Sequence record: NC_019423.1
Source: Escherichia phage IME11
Reading direction: 5' to 3' (one strand)
Length of the DNA stretch: 64,000 bases
Below are positions 27,169-30,116 of the stretch, one piece after another. How positions within the stretch are numbered: the first letter of the stretch is position 1; each line of letters begins with the position of its first letter. Below the pieces are notes generated by a model. The model had not been told where the DNA came from. It did no database searches and saw only the letters and a program-made list of their open reading frames with translations. The translations under genes were made by a program, and so were the position numbers.

Positions 27169-27617
27169 TAGATTTTACAACCCCCACCTTCACACTCATT
27201 ATTTTCCAGGAAGCCCTTCAGCATTTCTTGGCTCTGAGCTTGCTCATGCAGATTCTGCTTAAGCAGGTAACCTTCCAGTAACCAGACCTTATCGATTGCA
27301 TTTTCATAGGCAATCTTACGCCCAATTTCTTCGTTGAAGTTTCCCGGGGATGCACAGGCAGACTCACCAGTAACAGTGAAGCCATTCTCCAGAACCAGTA
27401 CACAGAAAGTCAGCAGAGATAGTGACTGTACTTCCTGGTTCTTAATGGTTGCTAAGTCTGGTAGTACAGATGCTGCACCATCCAGGCCAGTAAAGAAGTA
27501 AGTACCAAGTACTTTACTCTTGATGTGGTCAGGGGTAATGCGTGGAGCTTTATCAGCACCAGCTTCTTTAATCTGTTGTTCGAGTTCCATAGATTCCTCA
27601 GTGTTTATGTTATTCAA
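27168..27617 (-). CDS. hypothetical protein (149 aa)
   Basis: ORF directly downstream of the tRNA-like cluster and its terminator. Confidence 0.5.
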   Translation of the reverse strand: MNNINTEESMELEQQIKEAGADKAPRITPDHIKSKVLGTYFFTGLDGAASVLPDLATIKNQEVQSLSLLTFCVLVLENGFTVTGESACASPGNFNEEIGRKIAYENAIDKVWLLEGYLLKQNLHEQAQSQEMLKGFLENNECEGGGCKI

Positions 27618-27618
27618 A

Positions 27619-27655
27619 TAAAAAAGTCCCCCAGAGGGGCGACTCTAGGGGACTT
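27619..27655 (-). terminator. rho-independent terminator downstream of the tRNA-like cluster
   Basis: Minus strand reads GTCCCC...CCCCTCTGGGGGAC followed by TTTTTTATTT. Confidence 0.55.
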
Positions 27656-27898
27656 AGTACTATTTACCCATAGCTGGGAGGCTTTTGGTTCTTACCACGA
27701 AGACAGTCCACGCTGACTAGGCTTGGGATTGATAGTCCCGTTCCTGTGGTAATTACTCAGGCTAGGATTTAAGGAGTTCCTATTCTCCAGCGAAATTCCC
27801 GTCGAGGGGAATAACAATACAATAGCAGTCACTGGACTGTCTTACCAGTGTTGTCTTTAGAGTGCTATGCAATCAGGACTATGTTACTGCTGAATGGG

Positions 27899-27972
27899 TG
27901 TCCACTACTGGATTTGAACCAGTGACTTTCCGATTATTAGTCGGTTGCTTTCCCCGTCTAAGCTAAGTGGAC
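27899..27972 (-). tRNA. tRNA gene, apparent anticodon AAT (Ile-reading) by hand folding
   Basis: Minus strand GTCCACT-TA-GCTT-AGACGGGGA-AAGC-A-ACCGA-CTAATAA-TCGGA-AAGTC-ACTGG-TTCAAAT-CCAGT-AGTGGAC-A: 7-bp acceptor stem, D arm, canonical 7-nt anticodon loop with U33, T arm with TTCAAAT loop. Confidence 0.6.
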
Positions 27973-27978
27973 TTATTA

Positions 27979-28054
27979 TGGTTACCCAGGCAGGATTCGA
28001 ACCTGCGTCCTAGTTGGTTTACTAGTGGGGCTTTACCACTAAGCCTACTGGGTA
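27979..28054 (-). tRNA. tRNA-like gene with encoded CCA and non-canonical anticodon arm
   Basis: Minus strand TACCCAG...GCAGG-TTCGAAT-CCTGC-CTGGGTA-A-CCA: perfect acceptor, D and T arms, but the anticodon region (CCACTAGTAAACCAACTAGGAC) pairs only as CTAG/CTAG with a 6- or 8-nt loop. Confidence 0.5.
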
Positions 28055-28292
28055 TTAATAGGGGAGTCATGCCAGGCTTTAACTGGCTCCTTCTTCGCAA
28101 TCCTTACATACCCCTACATAATTATTGCGTTAAGCTTTTTTGTTTAAGTTTAAGTGAAGGCGTTCTTGCTGACTCATTGTTGGATGCTCCCGGGTATCTG
28201 AACTATTGAACGGGTGTTTCCAGCCATGCAGGCGTTCAAGATGTTTGGGAGCATAATTCTTTCAATTCAGAGTAGCACTGTTGCAGTCGTCA

Positions 28293-28370
28293 CTGCCCAT
28301 AGGTAAGGATTCGAACCTTACAATACCGTTAGTTTGCAACGTCGCTGTACCATTTCGCGTTCTATGCAAT
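28293..28370 (-). tRNA. tRNA-like element (possibly degenerate)
   Basis: T arm TAAGG-TTCGAAT-CCTTA on the minus strand; acceptor pairs only 5 of 7 and anticodon loop lacks U33 in my fold. Confidence 0.3.
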
Positions 28371-28383
28371 GCTACTTTGAATT

Positions 28384-28450
28384 GGTTCCGGCGTCTGGAC
28401 TCGAACCAGAACACTCACGTTTGTGCACAACGCTAGTACCTACACCGGAA
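28384..28450 (-). tRNA. compact tRNA-like element (about 64 nt) with encoded CCA
   Basis: Minus strand TCCGGTG ... TCTGG-TTCGAGT-CCAGA-CGCCGGA-A-CCA: 7-bp acceptor (one G-U) and T arm, but only 31 nt between them, too short for normal D and anticodon arms. Confidence 0.3.
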
Positions 28451-29460
28451 TTAATTGCCAGGGATTCCACCTGGCTCTATCTGTTTTTATAGTCACTCAG
28501 ATATCGTCTGGACTTGTTGTGGTGACCGGTACTGATCTCCGGCATAAGGCGCTTATTCGGCGGCGTCGAGCTTGCTTATTCGCTTGAGCCATCCTCGTGA
28601 GTCAGCCACGTCCCACTGCGCATCAGCCTGCACATTCACCACAACGGAAAGAGCACTGATGCGCTCACTTGGGACTCCTTAGCCATAACCCACGGGCTTC
28701 TGGTACACCAATGCTCTTACCTGTTGTGTGCCCATTATTAATCACACCGGGCCAGTGCGCCGAATTTGTTTACAAGGAATCGGAAGACCTTGCTGACTTA
28801 TAGGCTATTACGCCGCCATCAGAACAACATCATCGTTTGCATTTATGTTATTGGTTCGTTTCTAAAAAACCACATAATCGCTTACGAAAACTATCAAAGA
28901 GTACACTTACTCGACTGGTTAAACTACATCTGTCCAGCTCCGCAACAAATATACTCATTGATAGGATGTCATAATAGGGGAGGGAGGACGAATCCCTCTT
29001 TACCCTATGGTTTAGTTTACATGTAAGACCTAACATCTCTATGCTGGATGAATAGCGTAATGAACTATCCGACATCATTGGTTAATGTTGTGCTCAACAT
29101 GAGCGTTAGTTGATAAGGGATCTGAAGCCTTATCCTAAAGATACTAACCTTTGGGATATAGCCTAAGATTCAGAAATGGCCCCTATAGGGAGAGGCCATT
29201 GATTAACCCGAATGTTGCTTTACATTTTCTGTGATAACCCATTCTTAAAATAGTCTACCTGACGGATGGGAGTTAACCCTAGCGTCAGTGCCATACGGCA
29301 AAGATTAAGTTAAGAAAGGTTACGATAGGAGTTCCTATCTCAAAGGATTCTAACAGAACCCTTCACGATATTAACTATTCATTGTGAAATTCTTTGTTTC
29401 CTTCAGCAGGTTCTACACCCAAGAAAAAGCTAACTTTTCCACTTAGTTTAGATTGAACCA
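28451..29460 (-). ncRNA. candidate structured non-coding RNA region adjacent to the tRNA-like cluster (strand not established)
   Basis: About 1 kb with no credible ORF; 28500-28760 is locally GC-rich (about 52-62 percent versus about 38 percent at 29101-29160, hand counts) with a long inverted repeat GTCCCACTGCGCATCAG / CTGATGCGCTCACTTGGGAC; further hairpins at 29120-29350. Confidence 0.25.
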
Positions 29461-29675
29461 ATGGACTTCGGAGAGTATTAAAGCCCACTGGTTCGGTTGT
29501 TGTTGTTACTCTGGCGGCTTGTCACCACCGTGTTTACCACTGCATTTCCACAGGATAATGACAGTGATGATAAAAGCTATGTATGGAGCCGACACGTCTA
29601 TAATCCTGACCAGTAGTAGCATCAGGACTATAAACACTACCACACCTAGCAGCAGCTTCTGAGCCACCTACCAGA

Positions 29676-30116
29676 TTAACTACGTTTCAGGCCAGCGAAC
29701 AGTGAAGGTTTCGCAGCAGGTTTCTCTACTGGTTCTTCAGCCTTAACTTCTTCCTGCACAACTTCTTCTTGTGCTTCTGGTTCAGCTACTGCTTCTTCTT
29801 CAGGTTCCGGCGTAGAACTCTCGTTCTGACCACCAGTAGAGGTCTGGGTTTCTTCTACCTTTACCTCTTCAACTACTTCTTCCGGCTCTGGTTCTACCGG
29901 GCGATGTTTAGCTTCTTGAGGGTTCTTACGAGAACGGCGAGTTTTCTTCTCTACTCCCACGGGTGGAGTATCTTCATGAACCTCTTCGTTGATGCCAACG
30001 GAGGCAGTACCATCTGCATTGATGACAATACTAATGTCACCAGCAAGATTGATTTGATCATCGACATAAGCCTGTACAGCAGCTTCTACTTCGGACTGGT
30101 TCAAAATGATTTGCAT
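29676..30116 (-). CDS. hypothetical protein with small N-terminal domain and long acidic Glu/Pro/Val-rich tail
   Basis: 146-aa ORF; residues about 50-130 are low-complexity acidic repeats; abuts the resolvase gene. Confidence 0.5.
   Translation of the reverse strand: MQIILNQSEVEAAVQAYVDDQINLAGDISIVINADGTASVGINEEVHEDTPPVGVEKKTRRSRKNPQEAKHRPVEPEPEEVVEEVKVEETQTSTGGQNESSTPEPEEEAVAEPEAQEEVVQEEVKAEEPVEKPAAKPSLFAGLKRS

Follow-up and report, generated by a model that had tools for sequence, protein, structure and literature searches.

An unannotated tmRNA-like RNA gene with its messenger part ahead of the tRNA-like domain in Escherichia phage IME11

Results

An ORF-free stretch of the IME11 genome is a minus-strand cluster of RNA genes

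The window analyzed here is a 64,000-nucleotide stretch of Escherichia phage IME11 (NC_019423.1), for which an earlier note, made from the sequence alone, had reported a long region without a credible ORF. This claim was borne out: ORFs of at least 60 aa within the gap gave no PHROG match below E = 0.0096, and a protein-coding reading of the 76-, 86-, and 80-aa ORFs was rejected, as they matched no significant PHROG family. The gap runs from about 27618 to 29374, i.e., between a minus-strand gene starting at 27617 and a small ORF, and thus measures approximately 1.76 kb rather than the 1.85 kb first given, because ORFs of 37 and 53 aa on its far side match PHROG families (Table 1). The marginal match to phrog_26260 (E = 0.0096) runs antisense to the tag and pseudoknot region described below, and this family may be an ORF family built on mis-annotated copies of the tmRNA-like RNA.

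The stretch is a minus-strand cluster of RNA genes, and what had been described as a single feature is actually three: a tmRNA-like gene (28956-28516), a separate upstream stretch (29345-28957), and a group of tRNAs, closed by a strong intrinsic terminator. A sigma-70-like promoter match ahead of them could drive the cluster; promoter-type matches were no more numerous than in shuffled controls. The hairpins pointed out at 29120-29350 are real (z = -4.9 for 29345-28957), but belong to the upstream stretch, which was present in only 71 phage records, nearly all of them Gamaleyavirus. An STnc100-like Rfam match within it (29167-29262) was sub-threshold, at 29.7 bits vs. a gathering score of 47.

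The presence of four elements with T-arms was confirmed using ARAGORN and Rfam, all on the minus strand. Two of these (27972-27897 and 28054-27979) exceeded the Rfam tRNA (RF00005) gathering score of 29 bits, whereas two degenerate elements did not, that at 28295-28380 giving no Rfam tRNA match. Compared by eye, the anticodon stem of the Cys(GCA)-like element differs on both sides from that in St11Ph5. At default ARAGORN settings and Rfam gathering thresholds, the window yielded two tRNAs and nothing else.

Table 1. Features of the RNA gene cluster and its borders in the window (tmRNA-like gene parts in 5' to 3' order).
Feature	Coordinates	Strand	Remarks
53-aa ORF	29506-29667		PHROG family match
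37-aa ORF	29375-29488		PHROG family match
Sigma-70-like promoter match	29347-29374	-	TTAATA-16-TGnTAGAAT; consensus match only
Upstream hairpin-dense stretch	28957-29345	-	389 nt; MFE z = -4.9; separate from tmRNA-like gene
tmRNA (ssrA)-like gene core	28956-28516	-	Unannotated
H_a, 5' copy of helix H	28899-28956	-	GAGUAUA 28956-28950 / UGUACUC 28905-28899; 44-nt insert
Family-wide 5' motif	28884-28895	-	GAUAGUUUUCGU
Two small hairpins, then AUAAAU	28841-28883	-	UCG-UAAG-CGA; UUAUG...CAUAA; AUAAAU 28846-28841 before resume codon
Tag frame	28805-28840	-	GCA AAC GAU GAU GUU GUU CUG AUG GCG GCG UAA UAG
Helix 5 analogue	28793-28822	-	CUGA 28822-28819 / UCAG 28796-28793; stop codons in loop
Pseudoknot A, stem 1	28760-28792	-	CAAGG 28792-28788 / CCUUG 28777-28773; 3/5 pairs compensatory, 99% paired
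Pseudoknot A, stem 2		-	Loop CCGA 28783-28780 / UCGG 28763-28760; 2/4 pairs compensatory, 100% paired
Pseudoknot B, stem 1	28730-28759	-	CGCAC 28759-28755 / GUGUG 28747-28743; 2/5 pairs compensatory, 100% paired
Pseudoknot B, stem 2		-	GCCC 28752-28749 / GGGC 28733-28730; 3/4 pairs compensatory, 73% paired; length variants poorly aligned
H_b, helix H	28650-28717	-	AGAGCAUUGGUG 28717-28706 / CAUCAGUGCUCU 28661-28650; 44-nt insert
3' tRNA-like domain	28516-28645	-	7-bp stem directly abutting 5-bp stem
Degenerate tRNA-Cys(GCA)-like element	28383-28449	-	Reduced D-arm; ACCA ending 28383; relaxed ARAGORN only (28461-28387)
Degenerate tRNA-like element	28295-28380	-	Good T-arm, mismatched acceptor stem, no CCA; relaxed ARAGORN only
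tRNA with abnormal 6-nt anticodon loop	27979-28054	-	Encoded ACCA; ARAGORN; Rfam tRNA 42.8 bits
tRNA-Ile, anticodon AAU	27897-27972	-	ARAGORN; Rfam tRNA 65.6 bits
Intrinsic terminator	27624-27655	-	13-bp stem, then UUUUUUAUUU; strong; closes RNA cluster

A ten-codon tag frame marks the RNA as tmRNA-like

tmRNA is the bacterial RNA that rescues stalled ribosomes and tags unfinished proteins; it is considered to be almost universal among bacteria and to be rare among phages. The region had been given as one of unknown identity, but it contains a tag reading frame that was missed at first and that marks the RNA as tmRNA-like. From 5' to 3', the gene comprises a motif, a hairpin, AUAAAU, the tag frame, a stop-codon helix, two pseudoknots, helix H, and a tRNA-like domain.

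The tag frame encodes ANDDVVLMAA followed by two stop codons, and has no start codon, with an in-frame UAG lying eight codons upstream. As in tmRNA, it is a short frame that opens at an alanine resume codon and closes with a hydrophobic end and a stop. All 129 family members have exactly 10 tag codons, whereas the other two reading frames of the region vary in length. The tag consensus is AN[DE][DENS]xx[LR][AMVQ][AV]A, with L at the [LR] position in 128/129 members. Synonymous variation was found at codons 3, 7, and 10: alanine at codon 10 is specified by GCC, GCU, GCG, or GCA, leucine by CUG or UUG, and all three stop codons are used across the family. The pattern of change in the tag is like that of a translated degron of 10 residues, of the AANDENYALAA type found in enterobacteria.

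Upstream of the tag, the pairing of H_a is preserved in relatives despite base changes, i.e., as GAGUACAC/GUGUACUC in 24-32N and as a 13-bp version in St11Ph5, and its arms are also paired in the Rfam alignment. The 5' motif GAUAGUUUUCGU is the most conserved unpaired segment of the family; where members have a promoter of their own, it lies at the predicted RNA 5' end. The core of the motif, UAGUUUUCGU, perfectly matches the reverse complement of nt 97-106 of E. coli K-12 ssrA, a match that, at E = 0.10, is to be read as a lead only. This complementarity spans 10 nt, or 11 nt in some members, and its target lies directly after the 8 nt GCAAACGA common to the host and phage tags. No partner for the motif was found at the 3' end of the RNA. 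The second leader hairpin is 90% paired family-wide, mostly in a register other than that of the window copy.

Downstream helices and pseudoknots covary across the family

The stop codons lie within a helix that is followed by two H-type pseudoknots, an arrangement typical of tmRNA (Table 1). For the helix 5 analogue, compensatory changes were observed in 2/4 pairs, with 95% of cells paired. The loop of pseudoknot B, GAUUAAUAA, is invariant. Family-wide, 92.7% of cells were paired, vs. 34-46% when the partners were slid. Comparison with other phages, which had been proposed as a check for covariation, revealed compensatory changes in 13/31 pairs, both pseudoknot stems included; the observed values were reached by none of 500 shuffles. 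The idea of a large structured ncRNA adjoining the phage tRNA genes was thus upheld, as the RNA is conserved with covariation in other phages.

Helix H forms in the MFE fold of the window. Its flanks are conserved and covary, e.g., AUGGCACU/AGUGCCAU and GCUGCUUG/CAGGCAGC, and a G.U wobble is conserved three base pairs away from the insert. The insert itself is hypervariable, the smallest being a 9-nt loop and the largest exceeding 200 nt. We considered whether helix H could be an acceptor stem opened by excision of the insert to give a two-piece RNA. This was rejected: there is no NCCA after the first strand, and in some FelixO1-like phages the insert is a 9-nt loop, with the two inner pairs missing.

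The helix H insert and the tRNA-like domain together make up the GC-rich, inverted-repeat segment that had been flagged earlier. GC enrichment there is real (0.56 at 28500-28699), but had been overstated, since the flanks have values of 0.42-0.46, not 0.38. Likewise, the inverted repeat is present (28610-28626 / 28656-28675), but is not conserved in the wider family, where the same bases form other, covarying helices.

The tRNA-like domain is self-contained and lies 3' of the tag

In the 3' domain, a 7-bp acceptor-type stem (28643-28637 / 28524-28518; 9 bp in the window copy) abuts a 5-bp stem (28543-28539 / 28529-28525), and the loop CUGAU (28626-28622) of a hairpin at 28633-28618 is complementary to AUCAG (28536-28532). 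The 7 bp of the acceptor-type stem are invariant and 100% paired, whereas the flanking positions are not. The hairpin and the loop-loop pairing each show compensatory changes. The MFE fold of the window gives the same multi-arm shape, with a 9-nt loop and the 3' tail A-CAA, not A-CCA; the window copy, like other virulent-phage copies, has no encoded CCA. Prophage relatives have canonical D- and T-arms, with CCA 1-2 nt past the stem, and ARAGORN draws a cloverleaf for the relatives' domain once introns are allowed. The interior of the domain is GC-rich and hypervariable.

A G3:U70 pair is needed for alanine charging. The acceptor stem carried U3-A70 in all 17 type-II domains examined; FelixO1 proper was the sole copy with a G3:U70/A73/CCA tRNA-like element at the domain's position. 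FelixO1-like phages have no such tRNA-like domain, and instead carry an ordinary tRNA-Arg(UCU) or an odd tRNA-like element after helix H. A tRNA or tRNA-like element always directly follows the messenger part, although its kind varies.

The two acceptor strands (28643-28637 and 28524-28518) are both located 3' of the tag. Instead of being nested in the tRNA-like domain, the tag module thus joins it at the acceptor 5' end. A one-piece layout, for which a 5' acceptor strand was sought upstream of the leader, was rejected: the consensus -35/-10 boxes of three phage lineages stop 6-7 nt short of the 5' motif, leaving no room for such a strand. A P2-like trans helix between the leader and the tRNA-like interior was also rejected, as duplex energies in 45 members were as in shuffled controls (mean z = +0.16). 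In the 55989 prophage, this helix had looked promising.

The family is widespread in enterobacterial phages and escapes existing models

The core was present in 759/50,697 phage records and in 137/5,426 complete E. coli genomes, as well as in at least 120 IMG/VR contigs, and was almost never annotated. Carriers include FelixO1-like, Vi1/CBA120-like, and G7C/N4-like phages and Klebsiella phages of roughly 45-50 kb; P1-like phages possibly carry the element also, judging from partial matches only. P22-like prophages with the element occur in about 2.5% of complete E. coli genomes. P22 itself is without it and was therefore rejected as a reference. In these prophages, the element lies between Q and the holin gene, immediately past a terminator similar to tR' of P22, and the genomic settings of the element in other phages are quite different.

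The family covariance model scored 81-194 bits on sequences outside its training set and 178.5 bits on the window core. E. coli ssrA scored 12 bits, with similarity confined to the tag, and recent capture from the host was rejected on these grounds. ARAGORN made no tmRNA call in the window and left 127/129 relatives uncalled, and RF00023 gave no match in the window at E values up to 10. A sub-threshold Rfam tmRNA_permuted (RF04321) match was centered on the tag (33.1 bits, E = 2e-4, threshold 47); RF01849 reached 21.1 bits in the window vs. a threshold of 50, and RF01850 about 19-20 bits in relatives vs. a threshold of 84. ARAGORN's call of a "permuted tmRNA" in Moogle was rejected, since the tRNA domain of this call combines an orphan T-arm with the 5' half of a tRNA-Lys and is separated from the tag by approximately 530 nt that include three tRNA genes. 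A literature search on the tag peptides and on phage tmRNA-like RNAs found neither a description of the family nor published expression or tagging data for it.

Discussion

The messenger part of this RNA comes first and a self-contained tRNA-like domain, which does not enclose it, comes last. This order of parts has not been described before. Selection acts on every element in hundreds of unrelated phages, and the pattern of conservation is that of an RNA, with compensatory base-pair changes and a codon-constrained mini-ORF. We think it reasonably probable, therefore, that 28956-28516 is a phage tmRNA variant of new architecture, with a rearranged domain order, which is used during infection. 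The RNA would be made as a late transcript in lambdoid prophages and from its own promoter in other phages. Host tRNA enzymes would recognize the tRNA-like domain, with RNase P acting at its 5' side and trimming or CCA addition occurring at its 3' side. Stalled host ribosomes would then decode the tag frame; unfinished proteins would receive a phage-specified degradation tag, and the ribosomes would be recycled for phage translation. The tRNA-like domain would either deliver the RNA to the ribosome or merely set the 3' end of the messenger part.

Several findings speak against a tmRNA reading, namely U3-A70, the missing CCA in the window copy and other virulent-phage copies, the FelixO1-like phages without the domain, and the lack of an ARAGORN or Rfam call. 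Moreover, known structures of tmRNA and the ribosome suggest that an uncut RNA of non-nested geometry would be difficult to accommodate in the steps that involve EF-Tu and the ribosomal A site. Should RNase P cut at the acceptor 5' end, no link between the resulting pieces was found, leader/interior pairing included.

It is possible, though we consider it unlikely, that the mature RNA has no acceptor domain and is an anti-tmRNA or decoy directed at host ribosome rescue. The sole role of the tRNA-like domain, or of the true tRNA in FelixO1-like phages, would then be to offer RNase P a site for generating the 3' end, as with mascRNA and MALAT1; the seed UAGUUUUCGU would pair with codons 3-6 of the host ssrA tag, or the RNA would titrate tmRNA-binding factors, and the freed tRNA-like piece could additionally soak up SmpB. 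Consistent with such a role are the exposed and highly conserved 5' motif with its perfect match to ssrA just after GCAAACGA, the constant presence of a tRNA or tRNA-like element of varying kind directly 3' of the messenger part, and the hypervariable tRNA-like interior without alanine identity. A TLD-only RNA is known from mycobacteriophage DS6A, and tmRNA inhibition by such molecules has been described (PMC4131195). A decoy or antisense RNA leaves unexplained, however, that the 10 tag codons behave in evolution as a translated degron in which synonymous changes are free. The 10-nt match on its own has an E value of 0.10, and the motif is unchanged among phages of E. coli, Salmonella, Klebsiella, Citrobacter, and Erwinia. 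The Salmonella ssrA tag presumably reads ETY, which would mean one mismatch to the seed. For covariation of the seed with the host tag in Erwinia, a scan with a guessed ANDENF sequence gave no Erwinia genome among its matches. A virus-host hybrid appears rather improbable to us. Here, RNase P would remove the tRNA-like element, and the tag-and-pseudoknot RNA, then lacking an acceptor domain, would dock by UAGUUUUCGU on codons 3-6 of the host tmRNA tag frame, just past the GCAAACGA common to the two tags. Ribosomes recruited by host tmRNA would switch to the phage template and end with the phage tag, such tag-swapping amounting to a second template switch in trans. In a milder version, the non-nested tmRNA architecture may work in trans-translation unaided.

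A functionless remnant in this phage, i.e., a captured and scrambled ssrA fragment with tRNA debris in a recombination-prone tRNA cluster, is very improbable. The cluster is indeed mosaic among close relatives, two adjacent tRNA-like elements are degenerate, the window copy is without an encoded CCA, and prophage members show partial helix H duplications and a collapsed tRNA-like hairpin. Neutral decay would not, however, yield a core that scores 178.5 bits against the family model, retains every covarying helix and an intact tag frame, and is kept in at least six unrelated phage groups plus prophages. The earlier proposals of a large ncRNA of unknown class, an intron-like element, or a replication origin fit a hairpin-rich, locally GC-rich, ORF-free region beside tRNA genes, yet we regard them as having scarcely any chance of being correct. 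Rfam models of group I/II introns, GOLLD, ROOL, RNase P, and other large RNAs gave no match at E ≤ 10 on either strand of 27400-29700, and neither a tRNA nor a gene next to the element is interrupted. The compensatory substitutions and the codon constraint on the mini-ORF point to conservation as an RNA and are not properties of an origin. Furthermore, the element sits in quite different genomic settings in other phages.

If the phage tmRNA variant that we favor does tag proteins, phages would reprogram ribosome rescue and protein quality control with a degron of their own. If tagging proves impossible, the RNA would be a means by which phages naturally inhibit or hijack trans-translation, and this pathway is being explored as a target for antibiotics. 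In both cases, many phage genomes contain several hundred bases, now blank or wrongly annotated as tiny ORFs, that become assignable, the family needs its own Rfam model, and the need for nesting the tag module within the tRNA-like domain becomes directly testable.

To our knowledge, only two tmRNA architectures have been recognized, one-piece and circularly permuted two-piece; the present family would add a third gene order, which is not a circular permutation, in hundreds of well-studied enterobacterial phages. With canonical one-piece tmRNA (RF00023, e.g., E. coli ssrA), the phage RNA shares the alanine resume codon GCA followed by AAC GA, a 10-residue ANDxxxxxAA-type tag with a hydrophobic end, a helix with stop codons in its loop, pseudoknots after the tag, and what appear to be acceptor and T-type stems in the tRNA-like domain. 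It differs in that a closed tRNA-like domain follows the tag module instead of flanking it with its two halves, the leader has simple hairpins in place of PK1, two pseudoknots and helix H stand in place of PK2-PK4, U3-A70 replaces G3:U70, and the window copy is without an encoded CCA.

The best Rfam matches were to the two-piece permuted tmRNAs of alpha- and beta-proteobacteria, cyanobacteria, and marine phages such as Melnitz (RF01849, RF01850, RF04321). In both, the gene order departs from the standard, the RF04321 consensus and the phage RNA have the AUAAAUGCAAACGA context in common, and ARAGORN labels the Moogle-type lineage "permuted". In known permuted genes, however, the acceptor piece (T-arm, 3' strand, CCA) is upstream, and the coding piece starts with the 5' acceptor strand. 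Neither in the window nor in most members does a T-arm or CCA precede the leader, and the tag is followed by both acceptor strands; the arrangement is therefore not a circular permutation.

By analogy, MALAT1/mascRNA and the 3' structures of plant viruses (TYMV, BMV) also place a tRNA-shaped element at the 3' end of a longer functional RNA. These elements are recognized by tRNA enzymes, i.e., RNase P, the CCA-adding enzyme, and synthetases. They differ from the phage RNA in being eukaryotic systems with no tag template.

The catalogued phage tmRNAs, i.e., those of the mycobacteriophage Bxz1 group and Bacillus phage G and the TLD-only RNA of DS6A, are likewise phage-borne derivatives of trans-translation RNA (PMC4131195). 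The DS6A RNA indicates that phages can carry just part of a tmRNA. No enterobacterial phage is listed in the exhaustive RefSeq survey of phage tmRNAs (PMC4131195). The catalogued RNAs either have the standard architecture or are without a tag module, whereas in the family described here the tag module is the conserved core.

Genomic setting of the RNA cluster

The source phage, a Gamaleyavirus, belongs to the G7C/N4-like coliphages; its nearest relatives in GenBank are 90-97% identical across parts of the region. No credible ORF was found between the gene starting at 27617 and a small ORF at 29375-29488, and ORFs of 76, 86 and 80 aa within this gap matched no PHROG family below E = 0.0096, whereas those of 37 and 53 aa at its upstream edge did match PHROG families. 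The ORF-free stretch described in an earlier note is therefore real, although it measures about 1.76 rather than 1.85 kb. The minus strand is the direction of the genes surrounding the RNA cluster, which is bracketed by a promoter-like site and a strong terminator (Table).

All four T-arm elements listed in that note were recovered on the minus strand using ARAGORN and Rfam. The tRNA-Ile, whose anticodon is unusual, and its neighbor with a 6-nt anticodon loop, to which ARAGORN gave no assignment, are both kept in related Gamaleyaviruses. The anticodon stem of the Cys(GCA)-like element reads GCGUU/AACGU in the window and GUGUC/GGCAU in St11Ph5, and the alteration of both sides hints that this tRNA is still under selection. 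GC content reaches 0.56 at 28500-28699 against 0.42-0.46 nearby, a genuine enrichment but a smaller contrast than had been counted by hand. The long inverted repeat flagged in the same segment (28610-26/28656-75) is present but not conserved, and competes with conserved helices. This GC-rich segment is the helix H insert and tRNA-like domain of a tmRNA-like gene.

Table. Features of the tmRNA-like gene and of the RNA cluster around it (window coordinates)
Feature	Position	Strand	Evidence or remark
Promoter-like site	29374-29347		Upstream bracket of whole cluster
tmRNA-like gene	28956-28516	minus	
Helix H, extra upstream copy	28956-28899		
Invariant 5' motif UAGUUUUCGU	28884-28895	minus	
Predicted tag ANDDVVLMAA	28840-28811	minus	Rfam permuted tmRNA alignment
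Two stop codons after tag	28810-28805	minus	
Helix H, copy around insert	28717-28650		
Helix H insert	28705-28662		
tRNA-like domain	28645-28516	minus	
Degenerate Cys(GCA)-like tRNA	28461-28387 (ARAGORN); 28449-28383 with ACCA	minus	Relaxed ARAGORN settings only; reduced D-arm; encoded ACCA ending at 28383
Degenerate tRNA-like element	28380-28295	minus	Relaxed ARAGORN settings only
tRNA with 6-nt anticodon loop	28054-27979	minus	42.8 bits; encoded ACCA
tRNA-Ile(AAU)	27972-27897	minus	65.6 bits
Strong terminator	27655-27624		Downstream bracket of whole cluster

A ten-codon tag frame

The Rfam search proposed in the earlier note, run at permissive thresholds, aligned the minus strand of 28808-28956 with permuted tmRNA below threshold (33 bits, E = 2e-4) and gave a second, weaker match to alpha-proteobacterial tmRNA. 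The stretch carrying the alignment, AUAAAU GCA AAC GAU GAU GUU GUU CUG AUG GCG GCG UAA UAG, reads as a predicted tmRNA tag with two stops. The tag of E. coli tmRNA is ANDENYALAA. Neither a start codon nor a Shine-Dalgarno sequence for the tag frame was seen in the window sequence, and an in-frame UAG lies eight codons upstream.

The tag was exactly 10 codons long in 129/129 sequences, the remaining two frames being of varying length. Codon-by-codon comparison of the 33 distinct nucleotide versions revealed invariant GCA AAC at codons 1-2, D/E/N (S once) at codons 3-4, variable and for the most part hydrophobic residues at codons 5-6, Leu by CUG or UUG at codon 7 (CGA/Arg in one of the 33), and Ala at codon 10 in every version, with all four Ala codons in use. 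UAA, UAG and UGA all occur as terminators. The peptides, including ANDDVVLMAA, ANDNVFLAVA, ANEEMYLAVA and ANDEQFLAVA, resemble the enterobacterial degron at both ends. Judging from this codon pattern, the tag is under protein-level selection.

A plus-strand ORF at 28766-29026, antisense to the tag and pseudoknot region, has a marginal match to phrog_26260 (46 residues, function unassigned; E = 0.0096), a family that may have been assembled from ORFs miscalled across the tmRNA-like gene.

Structure of the messenger part and helix H

The structure read from the sequences, comprising a pre-tag hairpin, a helix whose loop contains the stop codons, and a pair of H-type pseudoknots, was then tested on an alignment of 28 diverse members. 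Paired cells amounted to 92.7%, compared with 34-46% when partners were slid by 1-3 columns, compensatory changes were present in 13 of 31 pairs, and none of 500 shuffles matched the observed values. Pairing reached 99-100% in pseudoknot A (stems 1 and 2) and in the first stem of pseudoknot B, with two or three compensatory pairs per stem. The covariation across relatives that the earlier note had suggested looking for is thus present. A covariance model built from this alignment scored 81-194 bits on sequences outside the training set, among them an Erwinia phage (103 bits) and Gamaleyavirus relatives whose pseudoknot region no longer aligns by BLAST; on E. coli ssrA it scored only 12 bits, over the tag.

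Helix H (GGUAAGAGCAUUG / CAGUGCUCUUUCC) lies 3' of the pseudoknots, with both strands conserved and covarying. Its interior is hypervariable among otherwise near-identical RNAs; the shortest form is a loop of 9 nt, the longest exceed 200 nt, and certain inserts hold tRNA fragments, including sense or antisense T-arm pieces. Insert types recur in unrelated phages, the window and family member L048 having one in common. A conserved U.G wobble lies three base pairs away from the insert.

A tRNA-like domain follows helix H

The domain 3' of helix H is tRNA-like. The copy in the E. coli 55989 prophage consists of GUUGUGGUG, a D-arm, about 75 nt, GCCGG-UUCGAUU-CCGGC, CGCCACAA, C and CCA, and ARAGORN with introns allowed gave a cloverleaf for this copy and for the related locus L121. 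Across members, UGUGGUG and CACCACA form an invariant, 100% paired stem of exactly 7 bp, properties that its flanking positions do not share. This stem directly adjoins a 5-bp stem, thereby matching the 7+5 geometry of the tRNA acceptor/T stack. With U-A at position 3:70, it lacks the alanine identity pair. In the window, the domain takes a "type II" form, in which AUCAG, part of the 9-nt loop on the 5-bp stem, complements CUGAU, part of a small hairpin's loop; this loop-loop pairing, as modeled, would mimic the tRNA elbow. The pairing shows a double compensatory change in L048, the small-hairpin stem has compensatory changes in two members, and the window domain folded alone adopts the same multi-arm shape. 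Temperate members encode CCA 1-2 nt past the stem, followed by AA; the window (tail A-CAA-G) and other virulent phages have no encoded CCA.

No canonical T-loop motif was found within 1.6 kb in many members, and ARAGORN called no tmRNA in 127 of 129. Its two "permuted" calls, in Citrobacter phage Moogle and an identical contig, were rejected, having been stitched from an orphan T-arm and half a tRNA-Lys about 530 nt from the tag. The Moogle piece used (L007, ~939-1030) is an orphan, permuted-looking tRNA fragment that runs T-arm, ACCCUUC-G-CCA, AACA and finally GAAGGGU, the 5' acceptor strand that matches, plus a D-arm.

Distribution and gene order

Sensitive BLAST with 28480-29060 matched 802 phage records, in nearly all of which the core DNA is unannotated. 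The common core retains 70-87% identity in phages with no relationship to the Gamaleyavirus source, namely FelixO1-like myoviruses, Ackermannviridae, several 45-60 kb Klebsiella/E. coli phage groups and Erwinia phages. The core alone (28720-28900) was found in 759 of 50,697 phage records and in 137 of 5,426 complete E. coli chromosomes, PGAP annotating it in none; an exact-pattern scan of IMG/VR gave at least 120 contigs. The element lies within the tRNA gene cluster in FelixO1 and, in P22-like prophages, between the Q antiterminator and holin genes, right after a terminator resembling P22 tR'; it is absent from P22 itself. Weak partial matches in the P1-like phages MH422554 and ON470615 (74% identity over 78 nt), spanning the pre-tag hairpin and tag, suggest that some P1-like phages contain a related element. 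A prophage-like IMG/VR contig (L057, 1709-1862) carries a Sib antitoxin RNA (Rfam SIB_RNA, 98.6 bits) a few hundred bases from its tmRNA-like element.

Gene order differs among family members. Own-promoter members begin at the 5' motif, which in three lineages is preceded, at a distance of 6-7 nt, by the end of a TTGACA-17-TAnnnT box. Members read through from upstream (the window, Ackermannviridae, prophages) have an extra helix H copy ahead of the leader and sometimes also a collapsed tRNA-like hairpin. In FelixO1-like phages, including Moogle-type relatives, an ordinary tRNA-Arg(UCU) comes right after helix H. Salmonella phage FelixO1 proper (L003, ~1695-1773) has a tRNA-like element after the core with the alanine identity set G3:U70, A73 and CCA, a tRNA-Arg(UCU) anticodon loop and no normal D-arm (Rfam tRNA, 31.7 bits); in Bp4 and UE-M6 a degenerate "tRNA-Cys" occupies this position. 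What stays constant across these sequences is a tRNA or tRNA-like element directly 3' of the messenger part.

The hairpins noted earlier at 29120-29350 are real, but they belong to a distinct region some 390 nt long (29345-28957, minus strand) whose folding is unusually stable (z = -4.9). It is present in only 71 records, nearly all Gamaleyavirus, and may be a leader, another RNA or a regulatory element. Within it are a minihelix with a T-loop-like hairpin (~29012-28982), a segment weakly similar to further N4-like coliphages (29140-28969; EK010, Bas88), and a segment resembling the Salmonella sRNA family STnc100 below threshold (29167-29262, minus strand; 29.7 bits), mainly over a terminator-like hairpin. 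Klebsiella phage KP6 has a full STnc100 match above the gathering score (L004, 2737-2950; 49.7 vs. 47), about 1 kb downstream of its tmRNA-like gene.

Possible function and relation to known tmRNAs

Given that all tmRNA parts are present and under selection in the phage RNA, with the tag evolving as a translated degron, the best-supported reading of the sequences is that, in infected cells, it supplies the ribosome-rescue pathway with a tag specified by the phage. The RNA would be expressed during infection, RNase P would process the tRNA-like domain on its 5' side, CCA would be added to its 3' end, the domain would be charged, and the tag would be added through ribosome rescue. Connectivity is the main difficulty. 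Left uncut, the RNA would have its messenger part attached to the 5' end of the acceptor, a connection difficult to square with EF-Tu/A-site geometry; RNase P cleavage would leave two pieces, and no link holding these together was found, base pairing of the leader with the interior of the tRNA-like domain being at the level of shuffled controls.

In the main rival explanation, the tRNA-like element merely makes the 3' end, and the mature RNA, lacking an acceptor, exerts its effect on the host system. Such an action might involve the invariant 5' motif, which is perfectly reverse-complementary to nt 97-106 of E. coli K-12 ssrA (ACGAAAACUA, codons 3-6 of the host tag frame), a stretch overlapping by one nt the end of the GCAAACGA common to host and phage tags. 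This complementarity is a lead in favor of the rival; however, the 10-nt match alone is compatible with chance (BLAST E = 0.10), the motif is unchanged across host genera, and a pure decoy leaves the codon pattern of the tag unexplained.

The viral entries in a curated RefSeq survey of tmRNAs are confined to mycobacteriophages, Bacillus phage G and the TLD-only RNA of DS6A, enterobacterial phages being absent (PMC4131195), and a later ARAGORN census gave tmRNA calls in 2.3% of phage genomes (PMC9004378). The "ssrA" reported from ARAGORN in the Moogle genome announcement (PMC4319497) is the spurious permuted call. No description of the family was found in full-text literature on six of the tag peptides, tmRNA-like phage RNAs and phage tmRNA (subscription papers and the tmRNA Website being outside this scope), it is absent from a paper on non-circular RNA permutations, and Rfam 15 had no family at threshold for the window and 12 related loci. 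For want of a literature description or an Rfam family, we take the RNA to be a probable new form of tmRNA. Its order is leader, hairpins, tag, stop helix, two pseudoknots, helix H and closed tRNA-like domain, which places the tag module outside and 5' of the tRNA-like domain, whereas in canonical, one-piece tmRNA it is nested between the two tRNA-like halves. The two-piece permuted genes known so far have the acceptor piece upstream, whereas in the phage RNA the tRNA-like domain lies downstream of the tag.
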